A DNA stretch of 64,000 nt from an uncultured Pseudomonadota bacterium (GTDB lineage: Bacteria > Oederibacteriota > Muellerivitia > Muellerivitales > Muellerivitaceae): the NCBI GenBank assembly GCA_963770835.1, contig CAVYRH010000007.1, positions 25,076 through 89,075 of the forward strand. The letters are read 5' to 3'. A model generated the notes under the pieces. The model saw nothing but the letters and a program-made list of their open reading frames with translations. It searched no databases and was not told the origin of the DNA. Of the stretch, positions 23,643 to 38,295 are shown piece by piece (within the stretch, counting starts at the first letter, position 1; each line of letters begins with the position of its first letter). Both the position numbers and the translations under genes were made by a program.

Positions 23643-26329
23643 CCGAAAAACCCATTCGGGTCCTGTTGGTGGAGGATGACAACGAGGACTTCCTGATCAT
23701 CCAAAAAATGCTCACGGTCGTCAAAAAAAAGTGCTTTGAGCTGGACCGGGTTTCCACCTATAAGGCCGCCATCCAGAAGCTGGAACAGAGGGATCATGAC
23801 GTCTGCCTGCTGGATTACCGGCTGGAGGGACGGAACGGACTGGACTTGCTCAAGGAAGCGGCCCTCAAGGGGCACACCATCCCTATTATTTTCCTCACGG
23901 GCCAGGGGGAACACGAGGTGGACGTGGAAGCCATCCAATTAGGCGCCGCGGACTTTCTCTACAAGAACAAGATTGACGGCGACATGCTGGAACGGTCGGT
24001 GCGCTACGCCCTGGAGCGGCACAAAGCGGAGGAAAACCGGATCCGTCTGGCCGCTATCGTGGAATCCTCCGAGGACGCGATTTATTCGGTCACCCTTGAG
24101 GGGGTCATCCTCAGTTGGAACGCGGGCGCCCAGCGGGTTTACGGGTTTGCCGCCGAAGAGGCGGGGGGGCGGCATATATCGCTCGTTCTTTCCCCGGCCC
24201 AAGAGAAGGAATTCACCGCGTTTTTATCGATGGTTCGGGAAGGGAAGGCCGTCATCAACGCCATGGCCGCTCACCGAACCAAACAAGGCAAGGACGTCCT
24301 GCTTTCCCTGACCCTATCACCCATTCGAAACCCCTTAGGCCAGGTCGTCCGGGCCTCCGTGGTGGCCCGGGACATCACCGAAAGCGAAAAATCGAAGGCC
24401 CTCCAAGAGATGCTTCGGGGCGAACGCGACCAGCTCTTGGAACGCCTCCAACTGCAAATGCAAATCATGCCCATTGCCTTTCTTGTCTTGGACCATGATT
24501 TCAACATTACCTATTGGAATCCCGCGGCCGGAAGGATTTTTGGGTACGACTTCCCCGAAGTGGAAGGGAAGTCCGTCACCCTCCTGCTGGCGGATTCGGA
24601 AAAAGCAGAAGTCGAACAAACCATCCAAAAGGTCAAAGCCGGCTACACCCCTCCCCATGGCAGCATCCGCAAGATCCGGCAAAAGAAGGGAACCTTCATC
24701 ACTTGCGAGTTCTACAACGGGACCCTTAAGGATTCGGAGGGCTATTTAACGGGTACGATGGTCATGGCCATCGACATCACCGAACGCCGCAAGGCCGAGG
24801 AAGTCCAATCCCAATTGGCCGCTATCCTCCAACAAACCCCCGATGCGGTCATTGGAGTGGATTTGGAAGGACGGATTTTCAATTGGAACCGGGGCGCGGA
24901 AATGTTATATGGCTATTCCTTCGATGAAATCGTCGGGCAACAAGTGTCGCTATTGGTGCCGCCGGACCGCCAGGAGGAATCCCAAAAAATCACCCAGGCC
25001 GCAAGCCAGGGTGAAGTTGTGCAGGGGTTCGAGACTGTCCAGATTAAAAAAAACGGGGACTTGGTGGATGTTTCCCTTACGTTGTCCCCCATCAAAGAAA
25101 GCCGGGGCAAGAGTATTGGTATTTCGGCGGTCATCCGTGACATTACGGAACGCAAAAAAGCCGAGGATTCACTCCGTAAGCATGAGGAACAACTGCGGTT
25201 GGTGGAAAAAATGAACGCCATCGGCCGCCTGGCGGGGGGGGTGGCCCACGATTTCAACAACCTGTTAAGCGTGATCGGCGGCAATGCCGAATTTTTGATC
25301 GGGAACCTGGAGAAGGACAGCCCCCAACTGGAAGAATTGGGGGAAATCCAAAAAGCCGTGCGGCGGGGAGCCGACCTGACCAAGCAATTGCTGGTCTTTG
25401 GCCAGAAACAGGTGGTCCAACCCCAGCCCGTCAACTTGAACGACCTCGGCGCGGAAATGAACAAAATGCTCAAACGCCTGATCGACGCCAACATTGACCT
25501 CGCTATTATCCAAGATAAGGACCTCAAGCCCATCCTGGCCGACCCGGGGCAAATACAGCAGGTCATCCTGAATCTGGTATTGAACTCACGCGACGCCATG
25601 CCCGAAGGCGGGCATTTGATCATCGAAACCAAGAACCTGGAGTCCGCCCAAATGGAACGGGAAAAAAGGCCCACTTTGCCCATAGGGGATTACGTGCGCC
25701 TGAGTGTGACGGACACGGGAACAGGAATGAGCCAGGAAATTCAAAAGCACGTTTTTGAGCCTTTTTTCACAACTAAGGCGGGGAAGGGAACGGGGCTAGG
25801 ATTGGCCAGCGTCTATGGCATCGTCCGCAAGTGGAGCGGGCATATCTTCCTTTACAGCGCTCCCGGGATGGGAAGCACTTTCACGCTTTATTTTCCCGCC
25901 CTGCAGGAAGCTGAAACCACGCCAGCCAAGGCCCAGCCAACCGCTTCCATTTCACAGGGGACAGAGACCATCCTTTTGGCCGAGGATGAGGAACCGGTAA
26001 GAAAAATCATCGTCCGAACCCTTAAAAAATACGGTTACGAGGTGATTGAAGCTAAAAACGGCATTGACGCCGTCCAAAAGGCATGGGAGTACAAGAAGGC
26101 AATCCATCTTCTTTTGACCGACACGGTTATGCCGAAGATGAACGGGAAAGAATTGGCGGATGAAATCCAAAAAGGCCGCCCGGAAACGAAAGTGCTTTTC
26201 ATTTCCGGTTATCCCCGCGAAATTCTTTCCCAACAGGGCATTTTGGACTCCGAGATTCGCCTTGTCCAAAAACCGTTCGAACAGGACGATTTGGTCATGA
26301 AAATCCGGGAAGTCCTCGATGAAAGATAA
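23639..26329 (+). CDS. REC-PAS-PAS-PAS-HK-REC hybrid histidine kinase
   Basis: N-terminal receiver, three PAS domains, LAGGVAHDFNNLL H-box, FEPFFTTK..GTGLGL, C-terminal receiver. Confidence 0.93.
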   Translation: MTEKPIRVLLVEDDNEDFLIIQKMLTVVKKKCFELDRVSTYKAAIQKLEQRDHDVCLLDYRLEGRNGLDLLKEAALKGHTIPIIFLTGQGEHEVDVEAIQLGAADFLYKNKIDGDMLERSVRYALERHKAEENRIRLAAIVESSEDAIYSVTLEGVILSWNAGAQRVYGFAAEEAGGRHISLVLSPAQEKEFTAFLSMVREGKAVINAMAAHRTKQGKDVLLSLTLSPIRNPLGQVVRASVVARDITESEKSKALQEMLRGERDQLLERLQLQMQIMPIAFLVLDHDFNITYWNPAAGRIFGYDFPEVEGKSVTLLLADSEKAEVEQTIQKVKAGYTPPHGSIRKIRQKKGTFITCEFYNGTLKDSEGYLTGTMVMAIDITERRKAEEVQSQLAAILQQTPDAVIGVDLEGRIFNWNRGAEMLYGYSFDEIVGQQVSLLVPPDRQEESQKITQAASQGEVVQGFETVQIKKNGDLVDVSLTLSPIKESRGKSIGISAVIRDITERKKAEDSLRKHEEQLRLVEKMNAIGRLAGGVAHDFNNLLSVIGGNAEFLIGNLEKDSPQLEELGEIQKAVRRGADLTKQLLVFGQKQVVQPQPVNLNDLGAEMNKMLKRLIDANIDLAIIQDKDLKPILADPGQIQQVILNLVLNSRDAMPEGGHLIIETKNLESAQMEREKRPTLPIGDYVRLSVTDTGTGMSQEIQKHVFEPFFTTKAGKGTGLGLASVYGIVRKWSGHIFLYSAPGMGSTFTLYFPALQEAETTPAKAQPTASISQGTETILLAEDEEPVRKIIVRTLKKYGYEVIEAKNGIDAVQKAWEYKKAIHLLLTDTVMPKMNGKELADEIQKGRPETKVLFISGYPREILSQQGILDSEIRLVQKPFEQDDLVMKIREVLDER

Positions 26330-26359
26330 CGGGCTGACGGAGATGAATTGGGCGGGGGC

Positions 26360-26842
26360 CTAGTCCTTCAACCAGAGCCTTATTTCCAGCGGAAACCCTT
26401 CCACTTCCATGCCACAAGAGGCATGGGGAGCGCTTGGCGGCCAATCCTCGGGTGTGGACGGCGAGGGGCGGATGGGGCCGATTTGGAAGGAATCGGGGTT
26501 CCAAAAGTCATGGAAAAGATAAAGACAATAAAGCGAAACCATTTCCTCAAATATTTCTTCCGGGTTGTAACGGCCCATGACGGTGTTTTCCCTCAGGCCC
26601 CGAAGCCAATATAAAAATTCGGTCGTGGTTCGAAGCACCAAAACACCCCGCAAAGTTCCCGTCAAAATCACCCTGCGTTCCACGGGAAGATCGGCCGTCC
26701 CGGCCGGGTTTAAAGTGAGGGGATGAACCTTTTCAGCTCCCCAGGCCCGGATAATCCGCTCAAAAAGACGGCCCGGATCGAAAAAATGGAACCGGAAAGC
26801 GCCTGGCGGGTTTCTGTGAGTCTCATCCATGGTCATGTCCAT
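26360..26842 (-). CDS. CheX-like protein, divergent (paralog 2)
   Basis: ILTGTLRGVLVLR, EIFEEMVSLYCLYL, GPIRP and EGFPLEIRLW follow the order of CheX elements; ExxN is ExxS. Confidence 0.6.
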   Translation of the reverse strand: MDMTMDETHRNPPGAFRFHFFDPGRLFERIIRAWGAEKVHPLTLNPAGTADLPVERRVILTGTLRGVLVLRTTTEFLYWLRGLRENTVMGRYNPEEIFEEMVSLYCLYLFHDFWNPDSFQIGPIRPSPSTPEDWPPSAPHASCGMEVEGFPLEIRLWLKD

Positions 26843-26873
26843 TCTTTTTCCTTTCCCAATCTATCCGAAGGAA

Positions 26874-27365
26874 TTAGTCCGCCCAAAAACGGATTTCCAA
26901 GGGATGGGTGTCCACCAAAAGCTGGCAGGTGGCATTGGGGTCCCGGGGCGGCCAATCCCTCGGAGCCGAAGGCCGGGGAAGGATCAATCCCAACTCGAAA
27001 AGTTCTGAAACCCAAAAGTTCTGTACCAGGTAAATGCAATAAAGGGTGGCCATTTCGTTGAAAAGTTCCCTCCCGCTGCCGGACCGTGGCAGTTTGGAAT
27101 TCCGTTTTTCCTCGAGCCACTTCAGAAAGGACCGTTGGCAACGGATGACGAGAATGCCGGACAGGGAGCCTTTCCACCGGATTTTTATTTCCTCCGGCAT
27201 GTCTTCCCGGTCTTCCAGGGCTTGGCCGTTGTACTCGGCATCGCCCCCGGCCCAATATTGAACGAATCCCCGGAAAAGCGTGGAAAGGTCCATGGAGCGA
27301 GGCATAAAAAGGGGAGGAGTGAAATTTAAATTTTCTTGTTGGATCTCGGCTAGGGTTTCGACCAT
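26874..27365 (-). CDS. CheX-like protein, divergent (paralog 1)
   Basis: IRWKGSLSGILVIR, ELFNEMATLYCIYL, GLILP, DWPP and HPLEIRFW; clearly paralogous to the neighbour; ExxN is ExxT. Confidence 0.6.
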   Translation of the reverse strand: MVETLAEIQQENLNFTPPLFMPRSMDLSTLFRGFVQYWAGGDAEYNGQALEDREDMPEEIKIRWKGSLSGILVIRCQRSFLKWLEEKRNSKLPRSGSGRELFNEMATLYCIYLVQNFWVSELFELGLILPRPSAPRDWPPRDPNATCQLLVDTHPLEIRFWAD

Positions 27366-27406
27366 GGCTCGCCTCGTTTCGGGATTGATGACATAACCGT
27401 TTATAG

Positions 27407-27423
27407 AGCAAAGGAGATGCCAA
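27407..27423 (-). promoter_or_regulatory. sigma54 -24/-12 promoter for the CheX-like pair
   Basis: Minus strand TTGGCATCTCCTTTGCT (GG-N10-GC), about 40 nt before ATG 27365. Confidence 0.75.
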
Positions 27424-27474
27424 TCGGAGGCCGCTTAATATTAGGGTTTTGTTGAGTGTAAATAGAAAAGTGAA

Positions 27475-27507
27475 CTGAAATGCTTTCCCAGGGGGTAAAA
27501 AAGGAAC
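27475..27507. promoter_or_regulatory. putative degenerate tandem upstream activator boxes
   Basis: CTGAAATGCTTTCCC-agg-GGGTAAAAAAGGAAC, 18-nt period; only half-site matches to the box at 29998. Confidence 0.4.
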
Positions 27508-27704
27508 AAAGTTGTGTGGGCCGTTTACCTAAATTTTTTAAACGAATCTTGGATCACCGGATGGCTAATGCTTACTGGAAAAAAGAGTAAAAATCATACA
27601 AACGAATTCTCCTATTCCTCAAATGATCAAGAAGATAGGTTGCTTCCGGATTTCCCAAAAACATGTGAGAAAGGGATGTTGTGCCGCTTCATCCATCAGG
27701 AGTC

Positions 27705-28094
27705 TCAAGCCACCGCGGTGGCTTTTTCGGCCAGGATTTCTTTAATCTTGTTCTTTAAGGCGTCCATGTTTACCGGTTTGTCGAAGAAACCGCTAATGTT
27801 GAAGCCTTTCAAGGCGAAGTCATTTTCCATTCCCTTAAAAGCCGAGGCTACCACGATGGGGAGGTAGGGGTGATCCTCGCGCACATGGGGGATCATCTCC
27901 ATCGCGTGCATGTCGGGCATCTTGATGTCGGTCATGAGGAGATCCACGTGGACATCCTCCAGGATTCCCAGGACCTGGAGACCGTTGTCGGCGGTCAAAA
28001 TACGGTAACCCTCCTCCGACAATTCCTCCAAATAAAGAAACCGGGAGGCTTCCTCGTCTTCCGCCACCAGGATGGTATAAATGGGTTTTTTCAT
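27705..28094 (-). CDS. single-domain response regulator
   Basis: ILVAEDE, LMTDIKMPDM, FFDKP; AGAGGAGG RBS. Confidence 0.92.
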   Translation of the reverse strand: MKKPIYTILVAEDEEASRFLYLEELSEEGYRILTADNGLQVLGILEDVHVDLLMTDIKMPDMHAMEMIPHVREDHPYLPIVVASAFKGMENDFALKGFNISGFFDKPVNMDALKNKIKEILAEKATAVA

Positions 28095-28113
28095 GACCGC
28101 CTCCTCTTAAAAG

Positions 28114-29901
28114 TTATTCTTCCCCAAGGGGAATGTAAAAAGTAAAAGTGCTTCCTTTTCCAAGCTCGCTTTCCACGTCCAGGTTCCCTCCGTGGGCCGC
28201 GATGATCTTATGGCAGATGCTTAAACCCAATCCCGTACCGGTGATTTTGGTTGTGAAAAAGGGGTGAAAGAGTTTTGAAAGGTTCTCTTTTGGGATCCCA
28301 CAACCCGTATCCCCAACCGAGATCGCCACCATTTTTTGCTGGAGGAACAGCTGTTGGAAGAGGAACCCTTCCCCTTTTCCTTGGGCTTCCGGGACCAAAC
28401 CCTCGATCAAGCGGGTTTTGAGGAACAATTTGCCACCCCGGGGAGTGGCTTGGATGGCGTTCAACATGAGGTTTAACGCCACTTGGCGTACTTTCGGGAT
28501 GTCGGCGGCGACCTGGGGCAATAGAGGGCTGAGGCTCTTTTCCATGGTCATTCCTGCGTTTTCGATCTTCTCGTTGAGGAATGAGGCGGTTTCCTCCAAC
28601 AGCTGATTCATGTCCGCAGGGGTTTTGTGGAGCTGGTCCGGCCGGCTGTATTCCAGGACATCATTGACGATACCATCCATCCGTTTGACCTCCTCGGCGA
28701 TGATATCGGCGTATTTCTTGAGGGTGGGGTCGTTGAGCTTGACCGAAAGCCTCTTGGAAAAACCGCTGATGGCGTTCAGCGGATTCTTGATTTCGTGGGC
28801 CACACCCGCGGCCATCTCCCCCAGGGCGGAGAAACGCTCGGAACGCAACAGCTGGGTCTCCATTTGGCGGAGAAGGGTCATGTCCCTCAACGTAGCGATG
28901 GCCCCGATGATTTCGCCGTTTCCACCCCGCAGGACAGAGGTTTCCAGAGTGACAGGAACAACCTCGAAGCGGGTGGTGTTTAGTTCTAAGTGGTCCTGCA
29001 CGAAGCTTCTTTCCTCCTCAAGGGTCCGCCGCAAGGCAACGGAGACCGGTTTTAATTCCTCGGGCAGTTCCTCGAGGGTTTTTTCCGCTATTTCGGCCTC
29101 CACAAAACCCGTGATCTGGCGGGCTCCCGAGTTGAATGTCCGTATCTTCCCGTCCTTTCGGGCCACGATGATGCCGGTCTTGATGGAAGCCAGCACACAG
29201 TGGTGGTATTCCAAGAGGGATTTCAGCTTCCGGTTGGATTCCACGAATTTTTGGACCGAAGTATCCGCTTGTTCGGCCAGGAACTGGTTCATGCCCACGA
29301 GGTGTTTTTGGGCGTCCTTTTGTTTCTTGGTTTCCATGGCCAAATAACCGCTTAAGGAGGCCGCCACGAAAAGGAAGGGGAAACGCACCAGTACTTCGGT
29401 GTCGCCGGTGAGGAATTGGCCGGAGCTTTTCATTTGCAGGAAGCCGTAAAGGGAACAGGAAACGATCGCGATCCCGAAAACGCTTTTTACGTCCTGGGAA
29501 AGGGCGGAGATGAAGATGGTGGTGAATAAAATGAGGAAAAGGTCAACGTCCTTGATCCCCCCGAAGTAAATGCTGCCAGAAATGAAAAAAATATCGGCTA
29601 GAAAAATGGTGGAAAGGACGCTGTTTTTCTCGATCCACCGGGTTTTCAAAAGAGGCATGGCGATAATCGATAGGAAGTAAGCCGCCAAAAGAACTATTAT
29701 TCTCGGGCTGAAGAGGACGCCGGTATTCTGTTCTTTGAAATAAAGAAGCACGGTAATGGTGAGAAAAACCAGCAGCCGGAAGGACATCAGGATTTCCCGC
29801 TTGCCCATGTCGATCCGGCGTTTTTGCAAGTGGGCGGAACGTTGATCCAGATCCTCCACCCATCGATTGGCTTGAATGGTCCCCGCCAGAGAATTAATCA
29901 T
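28114..29901 (-). CDS. membrane PAS histidine kinase (NtrB/PilS-like)
   Basis: Multi-TM N-terminus, PAS, GEMAAGVAHEIKNPL, FHPFFTTKITGTGLGL; start uncertain (29901 or downstream). Confidence 0.9.
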   Translation of the reverse strand: MINSLAGTIQANRWVEDLDQRSAHLQKRRIDMGKREILMSFRLLVFLTITVLLYFKEQNTGVLFSPRIIVLLAAYFLSIIAMPLLKTRWIEKNSVLSTIFLADIFFISGSIYFGGIKDVDLFLILFTTIFISALSQDVKSVFGIAIVSCSLYGFLQMKSSGQFLTGDTEVLVRFPFLFVAASLSGYLAMETKKQKDAQKHLVGMNQFLAEQADTSVQKFVESNRKLKSLLEYHHCVLASIKTGIIVARKDGKIRTFNSGARQITGFVEAEIAEKTLEELPEELKPVSVALRRTLEEERSFVQDHLELNTTRFEVVPVTLETSVLRGGNGEIIGAIATLRDMTLLRQMETQLLRSERFSALGEMAAGVAHEIKNPLNAISGFSKRLSVKLNDPTLKKYADIIAEEVKRMDGIVNDVLEYSRPDQLHKTPADMNQLLEETASFLNEKIENAGMTMEKSLSPLLPQVAADIPKVRQVALNLMLNAIQATPRGGKLFLKTRLIEGLVPEAQGKGEGFLFQQLFLQQKMVAISVGDTGCGIPKENLSKLFHPFFTTKITGTGLGLSICHKIIAAHGGNLDVESELGKGSTFTFYIPLGEE

Positions 29902-29912
29902 GCCTTATGAAA

Positions 29913-29929
29913 GGCAATGGACGTGCCAA
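29913..29929 (-). promoter_or_regulatory. sigma54 -24/-12 promoter for the kinase-receiver pair
   Basis: Minus strand TTGGCACGTCCATTGCC, near-perfect TGGCACG-N4-TTGC. Confidence 0.85.
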
Positions 29930-29979
29930 AGAAAACCACATGTTTTAAGGAAAAATCGAGGGTGGAAGAGACAAGGCGG

Positions 29980-30012
29980 AGGAAGGTTTTTCACGTTGGG
30001 TAAATTTTACCC
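29980..30012. promoter_or_regulatory. putative upstream activator boxes
   Basis: Perfect palindrome GGGTAAATTTTACCC (29998-30012) with a weaker box AGGAAGGTTTTTCAC 18 nt away. Confidence 0.65.
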
Positions 30013-30090
30013 GCTTCTAAAGGGAAGGGAAAAGACAGTTGGCTTCACCACAGCGCTGTCACCCTTCGTTTGAAATCCTGGTTTGTTTTC

Positions 30091-31434
30091 TTATTCCAGT
30101 TCGTATTTTTTCAATTTGTTAAACAATGTTTTTCGGGTGACGCCCAGGAGGTCGGCGGCTTTTGACTTATTACCCTTGGTTTCCAAGAGGGCGCGCTTGA
30201 TGTTTTCCTTTTCGGCGTCGCTGCGGCTGAGGACTCCCTTCTCCCCGGAAGGCAGCAGGGTTTTCGCCTCTCGTATTTCTTTGGGAAGGTCTTTGGGAGA
30301 AAGGGTGTTTTCCTTGGCGGTAACCACCATACGCTCAATAACGTGCTTCAATTCCCGGACGTTTCCGGGCCAGGAGTAATTCTTCAAAAGGGTGAGAATG
30401 TCATCGGAAAGCAGGCTGAGCTTCTTGTTAAAGGCCCGGCAGGATTCCTGAAGGAAAAAGTTGGCCAATTGCTCAATGTCCTTGGGGCGGTCCCGCAAAG
30501 CCGGAATTTTCAACGGGATCACGTTCAAACGGTAATAAAGATCGGCCCGGAAACGGCCTTCCTTGACCTCTTTCTCCAAATCCCGGTGGGTTGCCGTGAC
30601 TACCCGGACGTCCAGTGGAATCTCCCGGTTCCCGCCCAGCCGCCGGAGCATTTTTTGCTCCAAAACCTTCAAAAGTTTCATTTGGACGGAGGGTGTCAAT
30701 TCTCCAATCTCATCTAAAAAAACCGTGCCACCCTGGGCCTCTTCGAAAAGGCCGGGCTTCTGCCGCTTGGCGTCCGTAAAGGCTCCGGGTTCATAACCGA
30801 AGAGTTCGGATTCAAGGATGGATTCGGGCAGGGAGCCGCAGTGCAGTTCCACGAAGGGTTTGGAGGTCCTGGGCGACAGGGCGTGGATCAGCCGGGCCAC
30901 GTGCTCCTTGCCGGTGCCCGTTTCCCCCAGGATCATGACGGTTACCTTTTCCTGCTGGGCCACCTGCTCGATTTCCCCGTAAAGCCTCTGCATATCCGGA
31001 TCGGTCAAGAAAAGGTAATCCTTGCGGTACATTTCCTGCTGCTGCCGGCGGAGGGAGGCGACTTCCTTCTGCAATCCGCGTTTTTCGCCGATCTTTTTCA
31101 AAACGATTTTTAATTTTTCCATGTCGATGGGTTTTTCCAGGTAGTCCTCGGCGCCCATTTGCATCGCCTTGACGGCCGAGTCCACCGATCCGGCTCCCGT
31201 GATGACGACCACGGAAGCGGATGGAAAGGATTCATTCAATTTGGCCAGAAGTTCCAGGCCTCCCATATCGGGAAGATGGAGATCCAAAAGGATGATGTCG
31301 GGTTTCAATTGGTTGGCGTTTTCGATGCCTTCGGCGGCCGTATGGGCGGGGAAAGCCTGGTGGCCCTGCTGTTCCAGGAACTTCGCCAGGATTTTCACAA
31401 GGGATTGTTCGTCGTCAATGAGCAGTATCCGCAA
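30091..31434 (-). CDS. sigma54-dependent response regulator (REC-AAA+-Fis HTH; NtrC/AtoC family)
   Basis: Receiver, GETGTGKE, ESELFGYEPGAFTDA, FLDEIG, FRADLYYRLNV, WPGNVREL, KAADLLGVTRKTL. Confidence 0.95.
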   Translation of the reverse strand: MRILLIDDEQSLVKILAKFLEQQGHQAFPAHTAAEGIENANQLKPDIILLDLHLPDMGGLELLAKLNESFPSASVVVITGAGSVDSAVKAMQMGAEDYLEKPIDMEKLKIVLKKIGEKRGLQKEVASLRRQQQEMYRKDYLFLTDPDMQRLYGEIEQVAQQEKVTVMILGETGTGKEHVARLIHALSPRTSKPFVELHCGSLPESILESELFGYEPGAFTDAKRQKPGLFEEAQGGTVFLDEIGELTPSVQMKLLKVLEQKMLRRLGGNREIPLDVRVVTATHRDLEKEVKEGRFRADLYYRLNVIPLKIPALRDRPKDIEQLANFFLQESCRAFNKKLSLLSDDILTLLKNYSWPGNVRELKHVIERMVVTAKENTLSPKDLPKEIREAKTLLPSGEKGVLSRSDAEKENIKRALLETKGNKSKAADLLGVTRKTLFNKLKKYELE

Positions 31435-31638
31435 GGTTTCTGTCCTTTTTATAAAGTCTTAACTCTAATTATAAGTGACACTGTTTATTTATGGCTTGCG
31501 AATAAGAGATTTCCAGGTGATTGAGCCAATAAAAGTGCGTTTTTTTGAATGGCTCAATTTTATTGGGTTTTTGAGAAAAAACCAAAAAGGTGATGGAACA
31601 CAAACAAAAAAGGCTAGACCTTTTTTATTCTTTGTTGG

Positions 31639-32514
31639 TTATTGCATCGGCGGGGGTTGGTTTTTGGGCGGCCCGGCGCGATAGGGGCCGTTTATTTCAA
31701 TACGGCGCCCTTTGTTGATTTTCCAGGCCTCGTAAAGCCCGATTGCCAATATGACCAGCCCGAGGATGTTTTGGAATCCCGCTAAAAAGGGTAGGGCATA
31801 GGCCAACAACAGAAGAGCGCCGCAACCCAAGATAAACTTGCCGAAGTCCATTTGATCTTTCCGGGGTTCGGGATTGGCGGCAGAAGCGGCTTCGGGGGTG
31901 GCGGCGGGATCAACCGTGGTTGGATTGGCGGCGGAAGTCAAAAAAGTATCGGTAGCTAGGGGAGTAACCCCGGGCGTCGCCAAAGAGGCGGAATCGTTGG
32001 AACTGGGAGTCGCCTGAATTTGGGATGGGGAAGCGGCGGTTTGATTTGCCTGTTTGGTTTTGAGGTCGTCTTTTAATTCGCCCACGGCCATGGGGATATA
32101 AGTCAACACAATGGCGTTATAGGTCAGGAACATGGCCAGCAATTGATAGGGCCAGCCACCTAGGCCGTTGGAACCCCAACGAACCGCCGCACCTACCATG
32201 AAACCGACCAGAATCGCCACCAGGCCAAATTCATATCCGGTGGCCTTTTCGATACCGTAATAAATCCCGAAACCTAATAGGGCCGCCAAGCTTCCGGCGA
32301 AGAAGGCCTTTAAGAACCGCTTGACCTGTGAGCCGCCCTTGAATTGGGCTTCGATCTTACGCTTACACTCCATACAAAAGGTTTTGCCGTTAATCTCAAA
32401 ATAGAACTCATCAATGGTTTTTCCACAAGCTGCGCATGAAAGGACGGGAACTCGGGGAGTGTCGAAATCAGCCTTCTCGAACTGCAGGTTGGGATCGCCA
32501 GTATCCGGACTCAT
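31639..32514 (-). CDS. hypothetical membrane protein with N-terminal Cys4 zinc finger
   Basis: CAAC...CMEC, about five TM segments, and an Ala/Thr/Pro-rich loop. Confidence 0.75.
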   Translation of the reverse strand: MSPDTGDPNLQFEKADFDTPRVPVLSCAACGKTIDEFYFEINGKTFCMECKRKIEAQFKGGSQVKRFLKAFFAGSLAALLGFGIYYGIEKATGYEFGLVAILVGFMVGAAVRWGSNGLGGWPYQLLAMFLTYNAIVLTYIPMAVGELKDDLKTKQANQTAASPSQIQATPSSNDSASLATPGVTPLATDTFLTSAANPTTVDPAATPEAASAANPEPRKDQMDFGKFILGCGALLLLAYALPFLAGFQNILGLVILAIGLYEAWKINKGRRIEINGPYRAGPPKNQPPPMQ

Positions 32515-32652
32515 AGAAATCCTTTTAAATAAAATGGGGCATTGAAATTAGAGAAGAAATCGAGGCAATTATACAAAATAAAGGTTGTATAGGTGGGGAA
32601 GTATTAAATGGAATTTTAAGGCTTTTCACAAATCCAAAACTTAAAACCGACG

Positions 32653-33312
32653 CTAAAAAACACCCCGGAACGGGTCCACGTGCTCCGAGTCCAGCATGAC
32701 CTTAAAACCCACCCGGCCCGAGTAAATTTGGGTTAAACCTTGCCAGGCGATGAGATGGTCCAGGCCCTCAACATAAAGGAACCACTGTTTCCCGTCGCCT
32801 AAGGGGAAGTCCATCCCGGCCCCGGCATTCATGGAGAAGAGCATGTCGAAGGAATTGCTGTAAAAATTTGAATTGGATAGTGGCTGGTATTGGTCCACCA
32901 CCAAATCCATACCTCCGCCCACCAAGAGGTAGGGAACCGTGTTGAAGTTCTGGTGGACGCGGTCGTATTTCGATCCCCAATACCACCGAACGTTCACGGT
33001 CAGGGCGAAGTCGTTGGTCGGCTGCACGATCTGGTAGGCCGCAAAGCCGTTTTCCGTGGTGGGAGCCTGGCTGACGGTGACCGGCAGGTTCGGCATGGTG
33101 TAATAGTCCATGCCCCAAAGGCCGTCAAAATCGTCCGCAAGGCTGATGCCCAGCCAAAGCCCCCCTTCCGGCGAGGGGGTGCCGCTGCCTAAGAAACCCG
33201 AAACTTCACTTGAGCCCAACTGGCCTAGAATGCTGAAATTCGGGGGTTCAGGGGTTTGGGCCAACGCATGGCCGCCTAAAAAAATAAAAAATACGAATAG
33301 ATATTTTTTCAT
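32653..33312 (-). CDS. putative outer-membrane beta-barrel protein
   Basis: Signal peptide MKKYLFVFFIFLGGHALA (ATGA overlap with the upstream gene); alternating strands PYLLVGGG, NAGAGMDF, LYVEG. Confidence 0.65.
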   Translation of the reverse strand: MKKYLFVFFIFLGGHALAQTPEPPNFSILGQLGSSEVSGFLGSGTPSPEGGLWLGISLADDFDGLWGMDYYTMPNLPVTVSQAPTTENGFAAYQIVQPTNDFALTVNVRWYWGSKYDRVHQNFNTVPYLLVGGGMDLVVDQYQPLSNSNFYSNSFDMLFSMNAGAGMDFPLGDGKQWFLYVEGLDHLIAWQGLTQIYSGRVGFKVMLDSEHVDPFRGVF

Positions 33313-33614
33313 GGACGGACGCGCCCTTGAAGGGATTTTCGAACGCGGCTCCAGTACCACCACTTTTTTTGCGGCGCGGGCAAACGGGGATTCCGGGCCT
33401 GGGCCACCGCGCAAGTGAAGGTGTCCAAAACGCAGGGATCCTGGCGGTGGCCGGTGATTTTGGAAAGCTTGTCATAAAGGGCCCGGGGATTAGAGTTCGC
33501 CAGTTGTGAAACCGACCGGATGCCGAGCCGGTCGAAGACGCGCAACATGGCCGGGCCGATGGAAATAAGGTCGGAAAGCAGGCGTTTCTTCTTTTGCGGA
33601 ATGGATTTAGGCAT
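33309..33614 (-). CDS. helix-hairpin-helix protein, Cdd1 / mitomycin-resistance-like family
   Basis: DLISIGPA..LGI, LYDKL..QDPCVLDTF.CAV, KWWYWS. Confidence 0.82.
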   Translation of the reverse strand: MPKSIPQKKKRLLSDLISIGPAMLRVFDRLGIRSVSQLANSNPRALYDKLSKITGHRQDPCVLDTFTCAVAQARNPRLPAPQKKWWYWSRVRKSLQGRVRP

Positions 33615-33668
33615 GCCCCAAATTATGGGGCAAAAACCCCGGGAAGGGAATAGCCCCGGACCTGACGC

Positions 33669-34316
33669 TCAGAAAGGCTTTTCGCAGTCGGGGCAAACAA
33701 AGCGGGCCGCGAACCAATGCCCATCCGCCCTGGCGTAGTCGGGAAAGAATTCCACTTCCATACCCACCTTGCATTCGGGACATTCGAAACCGTTTTGAAG
33801 TCCCAAGTCCTCTTCGAGCCTGAGGGCACTCTTCCGTTCTTCATTCATGACAAGCCGGTAGGAATTGAGTTTGCTTTTGTGGCTACAGTCCTTCAAAAGG
33901 CCCTTGATCTTGCTCAAAACCTGCCGGGGGGTGTAAAAGCCCTTCACGGAGTAGTCGTTAGCGCCCAACTCCAGCGCTTTTTTGACGTCCCGGGGTTCGC
34001 CTAAGACGGAAAAGATGATGACGGGAATATCCTTGGTTTGTTCGCTTCGCCGTATTTTTTCCAGGACTTTGAATCCGTCCAGCACGGGCAGTCCGAGGTC
34101 CAAAAGGACTAGGCTTGGTTTTTGGTTGAGGATGACTTCCCAACCTTCTTCGCCGTCGGCGGCTTCCAAAACCTCATAACCGTCCTGTTCCAGCACATCG
34201 CGGTAAATGCGGCGGAATCCCCTTTGGTCTTCCAGGATTAAAATGGTCCCTTTTTTGATCTCGATTGCGGAAGGCTTTAGTTTTTCCCGGACAATGTCTT
34301 CAATCATCAGTTCCAT
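33669..34316 (-). CDS. response regulator with C-terminal Cys4 zinc ribbon (paralog 2)
   Basis: ILILEDQ, LLDLGLPVLDG, then CPEC...GHWF..CPDC. Confidence 0.88.
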   Translation of the reverse strand: MELMIEDIVREKLKPSAIEIKKGTILILEDQRGFRRIYRDVLEQDGYEVLEAADGEEGWEVILNQKPSLVLLDLGLPVLDGFKVLEKIRRSEQTKDIPVIIFSVLGEPRDVKKALELGANDYSVKGFYTPRQVLSKIKGLLKDCSHKSKLNSYRLVMNEERKSALRLEEDLGLQNGFECPECKVGMEVEFFPDYARADGHWFAARFVCPDCEKPF

Positions 34317-34356
34317 TTCACACCTCTCCTTACGGAAGTATTTCCGTTATGAGGAA

Positions 34357-34373
34357 AGCAAGGAAGGTGCCAA
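34357..34373 (-). promoter_or_regulatory. sigma54 -24/-12 promoter for receiver-zinc-ribbon paralog 2
   Basis: Minus strand TTGGCACCTTCCTTGCT, about 40 nt before ATG 34316. Confidence 0.85.
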
Positions 34374-34413
34374 AGAAAAGCCACCGAAAGAATATCAAAA
34401 TCCGCTGGGAACC

Positions 34414-34446
34414 GAGTCTAAACAACCCGTAGGGTTATTTTTACCC
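34414..34446. promoter_or_regulatory. putative upstream activator boxes
   Basis: GAGTCTAAACAACCC-gta-GGGTTATTTTTACCC, 18-nt period; the second box matches 29998-30012 at 13 of 15 positions. Confidence 0.65.
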
Positions 34447-34460
34447 AACGGCCGATAGTT

Positions 34461-35051
34461 CTAAAAGGACTTGCCGCATTTCGGGCAAATAAAATGGGCC
34501 GTGAACCAATGACCCTCGTTCCGGACATAGTCCGGGAAAATTTCCAGGACCATTTCCACACTACACTGGGGGCACTGGTAACCCTTGACGAGGCCGATTT
34601 CACTCTGGAGCTTGGGGGCGTCTTCCACCGCTTCCTGGATTTTTAATTTGTAGGAATTGATCGTGGGTTTGACGCCGACTTCGGTCATGAGGCTCTTGAT
34701 TTTGCTGAGGATTTGACGAGGTGTGTAAAAGCCCTTGACGGTATAGTCGTTGGCCCCCATTTCCAGGCCTTTCTTGACGTCCTTTTGCTCCCCTAGGACG
34801 GAAAAGATGATAACCGGGATGTTCCGCGTTCCGGCGTCGGCCCGGATTCTTTTTAAAACCTCATAGCCGTCGATTTTCGGGAGGCCCAGATCCAGCAGGA
34901 TAAGGTGGGGCTTGCGCTCTTTTGCCATGTTCCAGCCTTCCTCGCCGTCCTGAGCCTCCAAGACCTCGTAACCTTCGTTTGCAAGCACATCATGGTAGAT
35001 TCGCCGGAAACCCGGCTGGTCCTCCACAAGTAGGATGGTTCCTTTAGACAT
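34461..35051 (-). CDS. response regulator with C-terminal Cys4 zinc ribbon (paralog 1)
   Basis: ILLVEDQ, ILLDLGLPKIDG, then CPQC...GHWF..CPKC; overlaps the stop of the upstream kinase. Confidence 0.9.
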   Translation of the reverse strand: MSKGTILLVEDQPGFRRIYHDVLANEGYEVLEAQDGEEGWNMAKERKPHLILLDLGLPKIDGYEVLKRIRADAGTRNIPVIIFSVLGEQKDVKKGLEMGANDYTVKGFYTPRQILSKIKSLMTEVGVKPTINSYKLKIQEAVEDAPKLQSEIGLVKGYQCPQCSVEMVLEIFPDYVRNEGHWFTAHFICPKCGKSF

Positions 35052-38000
35052 ATCCGTCTCCTTTCACTCTTGGTATTTTGACGAAAAAAGCTGAGCCTTT
35101 TCCGAGCTCCGAAACAACCTCGATATCGCCATTTTGGAGCTTCATGAAGCTTTTGGCGATATAAAGCCCCAGGCCCGCTCCGGACCTGGAGGCTTCCGTT
35201 CCCATGACCCTTTCTTTGATGAAAAGCCGCTGGAGGGTTACAGGGCTCATGCCGATTCCCGTGTCCCTAATTTCAATGACACCAAAATCGCCGTAGATCG
35301 ACGTTCGGATCGTAATGGAGCCCTGATCGGTGCACTTAATGGCGTTATTAATAATATTACGGACGGTTTCGACGGTCTTTTCACTGTCAGCTTGGACAAG
35401 GGTTTCTTCCCCGCCCTTTTCCAGCACCAATTGAAGGCTTTTTCTTTGGATGATATTTTCGTAATCCCGGATAGAGGAGTCAACGATTTGCTGGAGGGAA
35501 ATGGGTTTTAAATTGACTGTCATCACTCCGCGCTCGATTTTGGAAAGACTCAAGAGGTCGGAAATCAAGCGGTAGTTTTCCACCCCGATCTCCCTCATGT
35601 CGGATAAATACTCCTGCTGCTTGGGCGTGAGGTTGCCCGCCAGGCCGTCCAGCAAGTTCTCGATATAACCGTTGATTTCCGCGACGGGGGTTTTGAGCTG
35701 GTGGGAAACGACCGAAATCAAGTCGTTCTTCATTTCCTCAATCTGTTTGCGTTCCGTGACGTCCCGCATGATGGAAGTGATGAAAACGCCTGCATCGGTA
35801 AACCACGTATAAAGTGAAAGCTCCAGGGGAAATTCACGGCCTTCATTGCTGAGTCCGACCCATTCGGTGTTCCGCCCGACGAGGGGAGATGTTCCGCCGG
35901 CGAAAGCCCGCCGGAAGTCGTCAGCATGCCCAGAGTAACTCTTTTCCGCCAAAAGAGAAACAAAGGGCCGCCCGTTTATTTCCGTTCTTGAATATCCAAA
36001 AAGCCGGCTCGCCGCCGAGTTGGAGTAGATGATGTGGCCGTAACTGTCCGCCGAAATGATGGCCTCATTGGCGGATTCGGTAACCGCCCGGAATTTTTCC
36101 TCGCTTTCCTTGAGGGCGGTTTCCGCGGCTTTTTGCTCCGTGATGTCCCGCATGATGGAGGTGAAAAAAAGGCCGGCACCGGTTTTCCAGGAAAAATAGG
36201 ATATTTGGGCGGGAAACTCCCCGCCGTTTTTCCGTTTCCCCGTCAATACGAAGGTACGGCCGGGAATGGTCTCCTTCCCAGAAGCGAGATAGTTCTGGAT
36301 GAGCTGGAAATTGCCTTTCCAGGAGGCCTCGGACATCAATTGGCTAAAGGGGCGCCCGAGGACCTCGGCCTGGGTGTAGCCGAAGATTTTTTCAGCGGTG
36401 GGGTTGAAGAAAATGACCAATCCCTTAGAGTCGGCGGAAATAATGGCGTCGTTGGCCGATTCGGTGAGGGTCCTGAACCTTTCCTCGCTTTCCTTGAGGA
36501 CCATTTCGGACATCTTTTGGTCCGTGATATTCTCAATAACGGCAAGGCGAAAGAGGGGCTCGTTTTTGATGTCGAGGACGGTGGAAGCGGAAACCTTGCA
36601 CCAGAGAATGTCGCCTTTTTTGCTGATGTAGCGGCTTTCCACTTGGTAATGGGGGAGGATCTTATCAAAGAGTTTTTGGTTCAGGTTCTTTTCCACGGGC
36701 TGGTCCCCGGAAAAAGTGAAGTCGGTGTAGGGATGCCCCACCAGTTCGTTCTTGGAATAGCCCAGCATGCTCGAGAAGGCGCGGTTGACGTTCACGAAGA
36801 TGCCGTCGGAAAAGGTCAAGGTCATGCCGATGGGGCTTTCCTCGAAAAGGTTCCGGAAAAACTCCTCCCTCTCCCGGAGTGTCTCCATAATTTGCCTTTG
36901 AAGGCTGATGTCGATGCAGGCCGTCAGGGCGAATTTGACCATGCCGTTTTCGTCCAGGATCGGGGCGCCCCAGACTTCCAGGGGGGAAACCCGGCTGGAA
37001 CGGCGTATTTCAATGTCATCCACATGGGTTTTCTCGCCGGCCAAGGCCCGGATGATCGGTAATCTCTCCACGGGATAGGGCTCCCCGGTTTCGGTGCTGT
37101 AAAGATTATAAGTTTCCGAGGATTTTTCGGGGCCGGCTTGGCTCTTGACCGCCTCCGACCCAAACATCTCATGGGCCGCCAAGTTGGCGTAATAGGGGGC
37201 GCCGGAAGGGTCCCGCACGGTGATGGCCACGGGCAGGACGTCCAAAAATTGGAATAAACGGTGCTCGTTGTTCAGGAGGGTTTTAATGAAGAATTTCCTC
37301 TCGGTGATGTCGCGCACGATGGTGGTGAAAAAGACCCCCTCCTTCGTCTCCCACCTTGAAACGGAAAGTTCCAAGGGGAACTCGAACTTGTCCTTCCGTC
37401 GGCCGTAAAGCTCCATTGTCTTGATCTCGACGGCCATGGAAACGAATTTTTCGAAGGAATTGGGCCCGTGTTCCTGGACGAATCTTTCCGGCATCAGCTG
37501 GGTGAGGGGTTTTCCGATCATCTCGGGCTTGGAATACCCAAACAGGATTTCGCCGGCGGGGTTGATGTCGGTGATAAGCCCCGCGGCGCTCGAGGTGATA
37601 AAGGCCTCATTGGCCGTTTCGGCGAGGAACCTAAATTTTTCCTCGCTGGCTCTCAGCCCGTTGACTGCCTCCTGGCGCTCGTGAATCTGGCGGTTGATCG
37701 AGACCACAGCCAAACCGCAGGCCAGGAGGGCGAAGGCCGTGCCGAGGAACATGAACCGCAGGTTGTTTTGGGTCCCGGTTTGCTCAAAGGCCTTGCGGGT
37801 CTTCAACAGCCATATTTGGACGCCCGATATCTGGTCGACCAGGTCCTTGATCTCCCGGTCCGTTTGCTTTTCGTCCTCCATCTGGATGGGACGGACGGCC
37901 AGGTCCGGCCTTCCCGCCTTCACATAGGCCAGGCCCACGCGCATGGAGGTGGACTTTTTCTCAATGAGGGTTCGGAGCCGACCGACGCCCTTGTTGAGGA

Positions 38001-38295
38001 TGGCATCACCGGCGGTGAGGCTTTCGGCGTGGCCGAGTTCCTCCTCCAGCTTGTCCATGCTCGTACCGCAGGCCGCCGCGTAATGGGCTTTTTGGGTCAA
38101 CAGAAATTCGGCGTAATTGGTTTGGGCATCTTTTAAATCGGCGTAGGTCTTTTGGAGTGAAAGGATGATCTGGTGGGAGTGGTCAATCCATTCGGTGTCG
38201 GTTTCCAGCCTTTGGATGCTGAAGTAAGCGATGGCCCCCAGGATCAGGAGGAAGAAAAAGGTAACGCCCAATATCAATTTGACTTTCGCGCTCAT
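35044..38295 (-). CDS. CHASE3-(PAS)5 sensor histidine kinase
   Basis: TM, WIDHSHQII CHASE3-like domain, TM, five PAS/PAC units, VSHQLKTP H-box, GAGLGLYI. Confidence 0.9.
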   Translation of the reverse strand: MSAKVKLILGVTFFFLLILGAIAYFSIQRLETDTEWIDHSHQIILSLQKTYADLKDAQTNYAEFLLTQKAHYAAACGTSMDKLEEELGHAESLTAGDAILNKGVGRLRTLIEKKSTSMRVGLAYVKAGRPDLAVRPIQMEDEKQTDREIKDLVDQISGVQIWLLKTRKAFEQTGTQNNLRFMFLGTAFALLACGLAVVSINRQIHERQEAVNGLRASEEKFRFLAETANEAFITSSAAGLITDINPAGEILFGYSKPEMIGKPLTQLMPERFVQEHGPNSFEKFVSMAVEIKTMELYGRRKDKFEFPLELSVSRWETKEGVFFTTIVRDITERKFFIKTLLNNEHRLFQFLDVLPVAITVRDPSGAPYYANLAAHEMFGSEAVKSQAGPEKSSETYNLYSTETGEPYPVERLPIIRALAGEKTHVDDIEIRRSSRVSPLEVWGAPILDENGMVKFALTACIDISLQRQIMETLREREEFFRNLFEESPIGMTLTFSDGIFVNVNRAFSSMLGYSKNELVGHPYTDFTFSGDQPVEKNLNQKLFDKILPHYQVESRYISKKGDILWCKVSASTVLDIKNEPLFRLAVIENITDQKMSEMVLKESEERFRTLTESANDAIISADSKGLVIFFNPTAEKIFGYTQAEVLGRPFSQLMSEASWKGNFQLIQNYLASGKETIPGRTFVLTGKRKNGGEFPAQISYFSWKTGAGLFFTSIMRDITEQKAAETALKESEEKFRAVTESANEAIISADSYGHIIYSNSAASRLFGYSRTEINGRPFVSLLAEKSYSGHADDFRRAFAGGTSPLVGRNTEWVGLSNEGREFPLELSLYTWFTDAGVFITSIMRDVTERKQIEEMKNDLISVVSHQLKTPVAEINGYIENLLDGLAGNLTPKQQEYLSDMREIGVENYRLISDLLSLSKIERGVMTVNLKPISLQQIVDSSIRDYENIIQRKSLQLVLEKGGEETLVQADSEKTVETVRNIINNAIKCTDQGSITIRTSIYGDFGVIEIRDTGIGMSPVTLQRLFIKERVMGTEASRSGAGLGLYIAKSFMKLQNGDIEVVSELGKGSAFFVKIPRVKGDGYV

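Follow-up and report, generated by a model that had tools for sequence, protein, structure and literature searches.

A predicted sigma-54 regulon of an NtrC-type activator with two-component and CheX-fold targets in an uncultured bacterium

Auxiliary phosphatases are known for CheY (CheZ and CheC/CheX/FliY) and for sporulation regulators (Spo0E and Rap); for NtrC-type activators, it is usually the kinase itself that is held responsible for dephosphorylation. Here we describe a locus in which an NtrC-type activator of sigma-54, an enhancer-binding protein (EBP), is encoded together with kinases, receivers and two CheX-fold proteins, X1 and X2. It lies in a 64-kb stretch of DNA from an uncultured bacterium, hereafter the window (G000:C7:25076-89075, where G000 is the source genome, C# a contig and L# a fetched locus), and its coordinates are collected in Table 1. 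An earlier note on this DNA had proposed a self-contained sigma-54 regulon at this place.

The closest described systems are NtrB-NtrC, AtoS-AtoC and ZraS-ZraR, whose combination of a receiver-AAA+-HTH_8 activator with tandem dyads within ~100 nt of a -24/-12 promoter (PMC4641369, in part) is repeated in the window. They also autoregulate their own signalling genes, as is predicted here. Unlike in these systems, the predicted targets in the window are almost only signalling proteins, not metabolic or transport genes; the kinase gene lies downstream of the activator gene, under the activator's own promoter type; and the activator has a GAFTDA loop and reaches no curated NCBIfam cut-off. With the CheX/CheC/FliY phosphatases of CheY-P (PDB 1xko, 3hzh), the X proteins share the fold, the D/E-x3-E helix and the distal Pro. 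Unlike CheX, X1 and X2 lack the catalytic Asn, have no chemotaxis gene nearby (the gene list and Pfam scan of the locus neighbourhood contain no che gene), are predicted to be sigma-54-dependent and are paired with NtrC-type activator genes. Spo0E and Rap are small proteins that act on the phospho-receiver of a transcription factor and limit its output (PMC3035606 and PMC3246441, both in part), which is the role we propose for X, yet the fold of the X proteins is unrelated to theirs. In the Che3-CrdA system of Myxococcus, chemotaxis-type proteins are likewise linked to an NtrC homologue (PMC3147164, in part); there the input comes from a CheA-type kinase, whereas here a CheX-type protein is encoded as a predicted target of the activator.

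We consider it likely that the region holds a conserved sigma-54 regulon of one response-regulator-type EBP (30091-31434) that works as follows. With its receiver phosphorylated, the EBP would assemble on an array of alternately oriented GGGTAAA-like half-sites, consisting of a strong 15-bp dyad, GGGT-N7-ACCC, and a weaker site 18-19 bp downstream, with its centre ~90-100 bp 5' of the predicted start site. From this array it would open three sigma-54 promoters in the window. The first would drive an AtoS-like kinase and a stand-alone receiver, giving positive feedback on the EBP's own input; the second, the tandem CheX-fold pair X1/X2, in which the acidic active-site residue is kept and the catalytic Asn is lost; and the third, the receiver protein RRZ2, probably with Cdd1-like and outer-membrane-like genes. 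X1 and X2 would most likely bind a phosphorylated receiver, the EBP's own being the first candidate, and modulate or limit the response. Such a regulon is ordinary in architecture and unusual in content, namely a two-component cascade plus a CheX-derived pair without the catalytic Asn. It would be a clear, testable case in which a single two-component system controls when several others are expressed, and the predicted activator site could be used for annotating a poorly known soil lineage.

The activator gene, three promoters and their upstream boxes

The earlier note had named three minus-strand -24/-12 promoters, and a search of the whole window confirms them. TGGCAY-N5-TTGC has exactly three matches in the 64 kb, all on the minus strand, compared with a mean of 0.26 in shuffled sequence, and none of 100 shuffles reaches three. 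All three carry the GG and GC elements of TGGCAC-N5-TTGCW at the exact spacing, and all are intergenic, correctly oriented and placed just 5' of the minus-strand open reading frames (ORFs) of X1, a 595-aa kinase (HK595) and RRZ2. The rpoN gene that such promoters presuppose, as the note had pointed out, is present in the genome (G000:C19:249668-250144; PF04552, 213.9 bits, in a 519-aa open frame). For comparison, orthologous loci were taken from other genomes of the same bacterial family. A T-rich-ACCC element followed by a sigma-54 site precedes X1 in 10 of 10 loci, window included; the full dyad with promoter precedes HK595 in 4 of 4 loci (the window and 3 of 3 orthologous loci), and also a paralogue on contig C16; box and sigma-54 site precede RRZ2 in 8 of the 21 loci examined (the window and seven further loci, in which box and promoter are conserved together). 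Promoters, boxes and spacing are kept across genera; conservation in relatives was among the checks suggested in the earlier note.

The full box, GGGT-W7-ACCC, has exactly two matches in the window, upstream of the kinase and RRZ2 promoters, where 0.03 are expected, and 0 of 100 shuffles reach two. The X1 box retains only the right half, TTTTTACCC, which is conserved in 10 of 10 orthologous X1 promoters; scored with a weight matrix trained without this genome, this box reaches 16.5. The distances of 59-70 nt given earlier are correct as gap lengths, and counted from box start to TGGCA they become 85, 84 and 74 nt for X1, the kinase and RRZ2. Across loci, the latter distance falls within 83-86 nt for all but one of the 14 X1 and kinase promoters (74 nt in the exception) and within 72-75 nt for 8 of 8 RRZ2 promoters, giving two spacing classes about one helical turn apart. 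In 18 of 22 aligned sites, the three window sites among them, a GGGTAAA-like half-site (two mismatches at most) begins at +18/+19 from the start of the box, and no other downstream offset rises above 3 of 22. This sharp peak matches the weaker partner box that had been reported 18 nt away, and the tandem boxes as a whole are conserved and phase-locked to the promoters. Over all sites, conservation is highest in the two inner half-sites, TTACCC-N3-4-GGGNAA. A smaller peak of upstream half-sites at -23/-24 (9 of 22 sites) marks a third, GGTAAAC-like element (window 27515-27535); among the nine are the four X1 promoters of loci ordered EBP-HK-RR-X1-X2. The pattern GGGT-N7-ACCC was not met in literature searches, none of which used the box sequence itself or covered supplements, and for that reason we do not claim the box as unpublished.

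The NtrC-like activator gene noted among the promoters encodes a response-regulator-type EBP, with Pfam matches to Response_reg (PF00072, 5.7e-27), Sigma54_activat (PF00158, 3.2e-67), AAA_lid_14 and HTH_8 (6.1e-14). Its best NCBIfam model is AtoC at 408 bits, below the cut-off of 714, so it is like AtoC and not a member. Twenty relatives at 63-83% identity are found among 30 genomes of the family. In 31 aligned relatives D7, D8, D51, T79 and K101 are invariant, indicating an intact phospho-acceptor pocket, and in the GAFTDA loop F-T-D-A is invariant and G and A are kept in at least 90%. GAFTDA is among the natural variants expected to be compatible with activation in the Desulfovibrio regulome (PMC4641369, in part). 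Of the nine EBPs in the genome that carry a sigma-54 contact loop, the window EBP and a paralogue on contig C8 alone have this version.

Downstream of the EBP gene, HK595 has AtoS as its best NCBIfam model (315.7 bits, cut-off 646) and is not a member either. The gene order EBP-HK-RR is kept in three other loci (L031, L033 and L038), and orthologues of the stand-alone receiver RR129, 76-81% identical, follow the kinase in three loci. Gene order and domain content make HK595 the probable cognate partner of the EBP. Between the two genes no intrinsic terminator is prominent, so read-through could supply a basal level of kinase. The kinase ATG (29901) lies 12 nt after the -12 GC in the window. 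Over five sequences (window 29899-29928, L031, L033, L038 and L007) the distance is 12-14 nt in every case; the frame begins with ~32 poorly conserved open codons ahead of the conserved membrane domain, and one orthologue has no internal Met in that stretch. This short distance, the open frame and the missing internal Met suggest that the kinase mRNA made from the sigma-54 promoter is leaderless or nearly so. The HK595 paralogue on contig C16 (G000:C16:18000-23000, L007) carries a dyad together with a TGGCAC-N5-TTGA site. Its frame is only 346 aa long and does not reach the kinase core, which may reflect a pseudogene, a frameshift or an assembly error.

CheX-fold proteins and their pairing with activator genes

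The active-site motif of CheC, CheX and FliY is worded D/S-x3-E-x2-N-x22-P. An AlphaFold (AF2) model of X1 built on 94 sequences (predicted local distance difference test, pLDDT, 90.7) has CheX as its top Foldseek match (1xko_B, E 1.5e-6, template modelling score, TM, 0.62); each of the top ten matches is a CheX chain or a putative chemotaxis protein, and after them come CheC-like proteins, CheC, FliM and FliY. X1 and X2 have no Pfam match at E<=0.01 and no NCBIfam match, and X1 misses Pfam CheX even at E<=1; at this last threshold the CheX model is matched by 37 of 94 X-family members (best 8.8e-10). The label 'CheX-like' given earlier is right because CheX is the top match of the fold and these relatives match the Pfam model. 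Sequence searches of the PDB with the X profile and with a paralogue from contig C8 returned nothing significant, the best being a CheC-like chain at E 0.68. A search with the X-family profile finds no more than 149 relatives among 1.84 billion representatives. Inside the phylum, X proteins hardly occur beyond this bacterial family, where 28 of 30 genomes have them, and a few others.

In CheC, CheX and FliY, the Asn amide orients the attacking water and the acidic residue bridges the receiver lysine, wild-type activity needing both (PMC3035606, in part). The X family keeps D/E-x3-E, with Glu104 in 76 of 94 members and the distal Pro, 23 residues after the Asn position, in 63; Asn107 itself is found in only 38. 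X1 and X2 depart from the motif in that the Glu is present and the Asn is replaced, by Thr in X1 and by Ser in X2. At the Asn position, the orthologues show T/S/V for X1 (nine other loci) and S/C/A for X2 (ten other loci), and Glu104 is kept in all.

The recurrent pairing of EBP genes with CheX-like genes is the least ordinary result of the analysis. Counts were limited to the genomes in both match lists (G000-G024), which removed 5 of the 92 X rows and 9 of the 44 activator rows. Within this set, 24 of 35 EBP genes, from two clades and many genera, have an X gene within 5 kb downstream on the same strand, and, conversely, 32 of 87 X genes lie downstream of an activator gene in this way. The two clades differ in the active site of the adjacent X protein: Asn occurs in none of the 13 X genes beside clade-A EBPs, and the eight beside clade-B EBPs have Asn (five), Gln (two) or Asp (one). 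In the literature searched, supplements lying outside the search, we found no description of an EBP-CheX-like module or of such a partner of an NtrC-type EBP.

Because the gene pairing recurs, we propose that X proteins act back on the EBP receiver. A bolder and tentative extension is that the CheX-derived proteins form an undescribed partner class of NtrC-type activators, encoded downstream of the activator, induced by it through sigma-54 and feeding back on its phospho-receiver. The Asn/Gln clade, including the C8 module described below, would then be true phosphatases. In the window clade, which is duplicated with the amide lost in both copies, X1-X2 would be a non-hydrolysing binder that could, for instance, serve as a timer, sequester the phospho-receiver or connect it to the regulon's other receivers. 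The pairing, seen at 24 of 35 EBP genes in many genera, would point to a dedicated feedback partner for a large regulator class, and the X family would offer a natural series from intact to degenerate active sites for testing the feedback idea.

X1 and X2 might instead act on RR129 or on RRZ-type receivers and not on the EBP, or might still be working phosphatases that use the Thr/Ser or another residue, a possibility that we regard as less likely than not. X1-X2 directly follow HK-RR129 in four genomes, the regulon is rich in receivers, and the retention of Glu104 in every X1 and X2 orthologue would fit a surviving activity. However, three genomes have no HK-RR pair between the EBP and X1-X2, and most EBP-X modules have no other receiver gene in between. 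A phosphatase working with Thr or Ser sits poorly with the amide's role in orienting the water and with the need for both inserted residues for wild-type activity, as given in part of PMC3035606. A predicted complex between the EBP receiver (residues 1-122) and X1 (residues 20-163) scored 0.16 where the mark was 0.32, and was used neither for nor against such binding.

A second module of this kind exists in the same genome at G000:C8:188500-194500 (L004), with a kinase, a GAFTDA activator (58% identical), a methyltransferase-like ORF, a 184-aa ORF, a promoter and an X-family gene. Its sigma-54 promoter reads TGGCATTCCGATTGC, with the palindrome TGCCCAATAATTGGGCA 97 nt upstream. The C8 X paralogue has the complete D-x3-E-x2-N-x22-P motif and its own sigma-54 promoter, and scores 26.7-27.1 bits against Pfam CheX, at the 27-bit cut-off. 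A canonical chemotaxis cluster lies on another contig (G000:C5:164318-167548, L063), where the end of CheA is followed by a CheC-like protein with two D/S-x3-E-x2-N motifs, so the organism also has ordinary CheC-type proteins.

Proposed assignment of the boxes to the activator

We infer that the window EBP binds the predicted boxes from gene adjacency, the helix shared by clade A and the co-variation of helix and box. In the kinase loci, EBP orthologues (76-83% identity) stand directly 5' of the box, and the strongest box comes right after the EBP gene in 4 of 4. In three genomes without the kinase pair at this place, the EBP orthologue is directly 5' of the X1 box, and in 6 of the 10 X1 loci overall an EBP orthologue immediately precedes the boxes. 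The recognition helix (I/V)TRKTLFN(K/Q) is common to all 21 clade-A EBP sequences. Among 16 EBP-X loci of the two clades, TTACCC-N3-5-GGG occurs 5' of the X gene in 8 of 11 loci with the RKTLFNK helix and in 0 of 5 with other helices, four of which show different repeats, e.g. TGCCCAA-N3-TTGGGCA at the C8 module of this genome.

Several findings weigh against assigning the regulon to this activator. Nine EBPs of the genome carry the sigma-54 loop, and the window EBP is singled out among them by proximity and co-variation only; the co-variation comes from few loci in related genomes, and the strict pattern is missing at three RKTLFNK loci. The upstream region of the EBP gene itself has neither box nor sigma-54 promoter. 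Two same-genus loci (L029 and L030) keep the X1-X2 box and promoter with no EBP within 10 kb, an EBP 70% identical being encoded elsewhere in two of these same-genus genomes (G002 and G003). On the side of the targets, the X1 box is a half-site only; 12 of the 21 RRZ2 loci have neither box nor promoter and one more has the boxes only, with several of the 12 showing a short gap to a preceding RRZ1-type gene; and, with the Asn lost, X1 and X2 may not act as CheX does.

These points leave some room for the promoters being real and the boxes being bound by another regulator, either a different EBP or a non-EBP factor, while the neighbouring EBP has other targets. We hold this to be improbable. The number of EBPs in the genome and the same-genus relatives with an X1 box and no adjacent EBP speak for it, as does the RKTLFNK helix found in some clade-B EBPs of other genomes. 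It is opposed by the position of the EBP gene before the strongest box in all four kinase loci and before the X1 box in three others, and by the way helix type tracks box type. The only close EBP paralogue in the genome, the one on C8, has a different helix and palindrome. Binding by the window EBP is the reading we prefer. As a side observation, two halves of a sigma-54 interaction domain lie in adjacent overlapping stretches and different frames at G000:C4:583212-583710, which may be a frameshifted activator gene.

It is very unlikely that the A/T-rich palindromes are not activator sites but have a structural origin or are leftovers, for example terminator hairpins belonging to the genes upstream, bent DNA or sites for nucleoid proteins. 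Two boxes do sit just past stop codons, and one plus-strand terminator-like match overlaps the junction of the RRZ2 box. However, the region has 17 terminator-like matches compared with 17.5 in shuffles, and we rejected the boxes as terminators; the X1 boxes are conserved though not palindromic, their distance to the -24 element varies by no more than 1-2 nt between genera, and some promoters with the same box are not preceded by a gene end.

The signature elsewhere in the genome and neighbouring genes

A genome-wide scan had been suggested in the earlier note as a check on the box and promoter pairs. With a weight matrix built from 19 sites of other genomes only, 184 matches score at or above the threshold of 12, and eight of them (seven promoters) have a sigma-54 site 65-100 nt downstream, where 0.084 are expected. 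The motifs are short, but this excess, the shuffle counts within the window and the conservation in other genera reduce a chance co-occurrence to next to nothing. A plain consensus scan gives 16 15-mers within two mismatches of the dyad, with a good sigma-54 site (score <=1) 60-100 nt away in five and a weaker one in two. The regulon is consequently not self-contained as first proposed, the same signature being present at four or more other places in the genome.

Three of the four extra pairs found with the matrix are predicted to drive paralogous kinase or receiver genes (Table 1). The two HAMP kinases are 63-65% identical to each other and to the core of the large CHASE3-PAS kinase of the window, and the receivers at their loci are 57-60% identical to RRZ1/RRZ2. 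With kinase and receiver paralogues behind the same signature, the EBP would stand at the top of a cascade of two-component systems. The target list drawn up earlier, a kinase-receiver pair, two CheX-fold proteins and a receiver-zinc-ribbon protein, is borne out by domains and fold, and the feedback design built on it is plausible. The further statement that all targets are phosphosignalling proteins holds for most of them; RRZ2 is followed by Cdd1-like and outer-membrane-like genes, and the candidate target at C11 is an NHL-repeat lipoprotein. Two uncharacterised protein types had also been claimed; the tail of the RRZ proteins is indeed unannotated, whereas X1 and X2 belong to the CheX family as a divergent branch.

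Table 1. Features of the locus (positions in the window) and further box-promoter pairs (contig:position in the source genome)
Feature	Position	Strand	Basis and remarks
X2, X1 paralogue, 160 aa	26360-26842	minus	~35% identity to X1; Ser for Asn; sequence comparison, motif columns
X1, CheX-fold protein, 163 aa	26874-27365	minus	Thr for catalytic Asn; AF2 model, Foldseek, motif columns
Predicted sigma-54 promoter of X1-X2	27408-27422	minus	-24/-12 pattern TGGCATCTCCTTTGC, conserved
Partner site of X1 box	27475-27489	minus	GGGAAAG..., 18 nt past box start
Box 5' of X1 promoter	27493-27507	minus	GTTCCTTTTTTACCC on minus strand; 85 nt to TGGCA
RR129, stand-alone receiver	27705-28094	minus	Pfam Response_reg 4.4e-19; 20 nt downstream of HK595
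HK595, membrane PAS histidine kinase, AtoS-like, 595 aa	28114-29901	minus	Pfam PAS, HisKA, HATPase_c
Predicted sigma-54 promoter of kinase-receiver operon	29914-29928	minus	-24/-12 pattern TGGCACGTCCATTGC, conserved
Weaker partner site of kinase box	29980-29994	minus	left half GTGAAAA, 18 nt after strong-box start
Strong box 5' of kinase promoter	29998-30012	minus	perfect dyad GGGTAAAATTTACCC; 84 nt from box start to TGGCA
EBP, NtrC/AtoC-like response-regulator activator of sigma-54, 447 aa	30091-31434	minus	Pfam domains, GAFTDA loop
Membrane zinc-finger protein	31639-32514	minus	
Signal-peptide, outer-membrane-like protein, 220 aa	32653-33315	minus	C-terminal Phe, no Pfam match; overlaps end of Cdd1-like gene
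Cdd1-like gene	33309-33614	minus	Pfam Cdd1 1e-23; 54-nt gap after RRZ2
RRZ2, receiver with C-terminal CxxC...CxxC zinc-ribbon tail, 215 aa	33669-34316	minus	Pfam Response_reg 3.9e-24
Predicted sigma-54 promoter of RRZ2	34358-34372	minus	-24/-12 pattern TGGCACCTTCCTTGC, conserved
Partner site of RRZ2 box	34414-34428	minus	GGGTTGT..., 18 nt past box start
Box 5' of RRZ2 promoter	34432-34446	minus	GGGTAAAAATAACCC on minus strand; 74 nt to TGGCA
RRZ1, receiver with CxxC...CxxC tail, RRZ2 paralogue	34461-35051	minus	60% identical to RRZ2; not under a box
CHASE3-PAS histidine kinase	35044-38295	minus	stop overlaps RRZ1 start; not under a box
Extra box and promoter	C4:525386		stand-alone receiver 39% identical to RR129
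Extra box and promoter	C4:640898		HAMP kinase and receiver
Extra box and promoter	C26:172894		exported protein, HAMP kinase, receiver
Extra box and promoter, weak box	C11:231472		NHL-repeat lipoprotein
HK595 paralogue with dyad and sigma-54-like site	C16:22583		frame of 346 aa

All genes of the region are on the minus strand, and in the direction of transcription they are ordered CHASE3-PAS kinase, RRZ1, RRZ2, Cdd1-like, outer-membrane-like, membrane zinc-finger protein, EBP, HK595, RR129, X1 and X2. RRZ2 is probably the first gene of an operon shared with the Cdd1-like and outer-membrane-like genes; the order RRZ2-(Cdd1)-outer-membrane-like recurs at 7 of 23 related loci, among them five of the seven loci outside the window in which the promoter is present. 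The 220-aa outer-membrane-like protein may be a non-signalling output of the regulon; its Atlas features resemble small outer-membrane beta-barrel families, which serves as a lead only. In the RRZ2 tail, C179, C182, C208, C211 and a G-H-W-F motif are invariant or nearly so in 41 sequences, and Pfam gives it nothing beyond sub-threshold zinc-ribbon matches. A whole-protein model of RRZ (pLDDT 80.8) matched receiver domains only, and the Atlas had no usable match for residues 145-215. The ~70-aa tail of RRZ1/RRZ2 belongs to no Pfam family and occurs in 47 protein clusters, all annotated as receivers only.

Two sites from the plain consensus scan, C7:136683 and C8:2962, were not counted, the sigma-54-like site at C8 lying inside an ORF. 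Both belong to paralogous surface-protein genes (1310 aa, and a frame of at least 971 aa) with a box-like 15-mer just 5', and their sigma-54-like sites are weak or within an ORF. Identical 25-mers among the matrix matches on several contigs (C22:40, C16:35357 and C12:23533, and also C9:22790 and C5:409584) are probably copies of repeated elements. The source genome comprises 4.58 Mb in 26 contigs at 96% completeness. Parts of 26300-35100 are contained in nine public runs from four studies, all of them DNA, of which eight are labelled soil metagenome and one metagenome.

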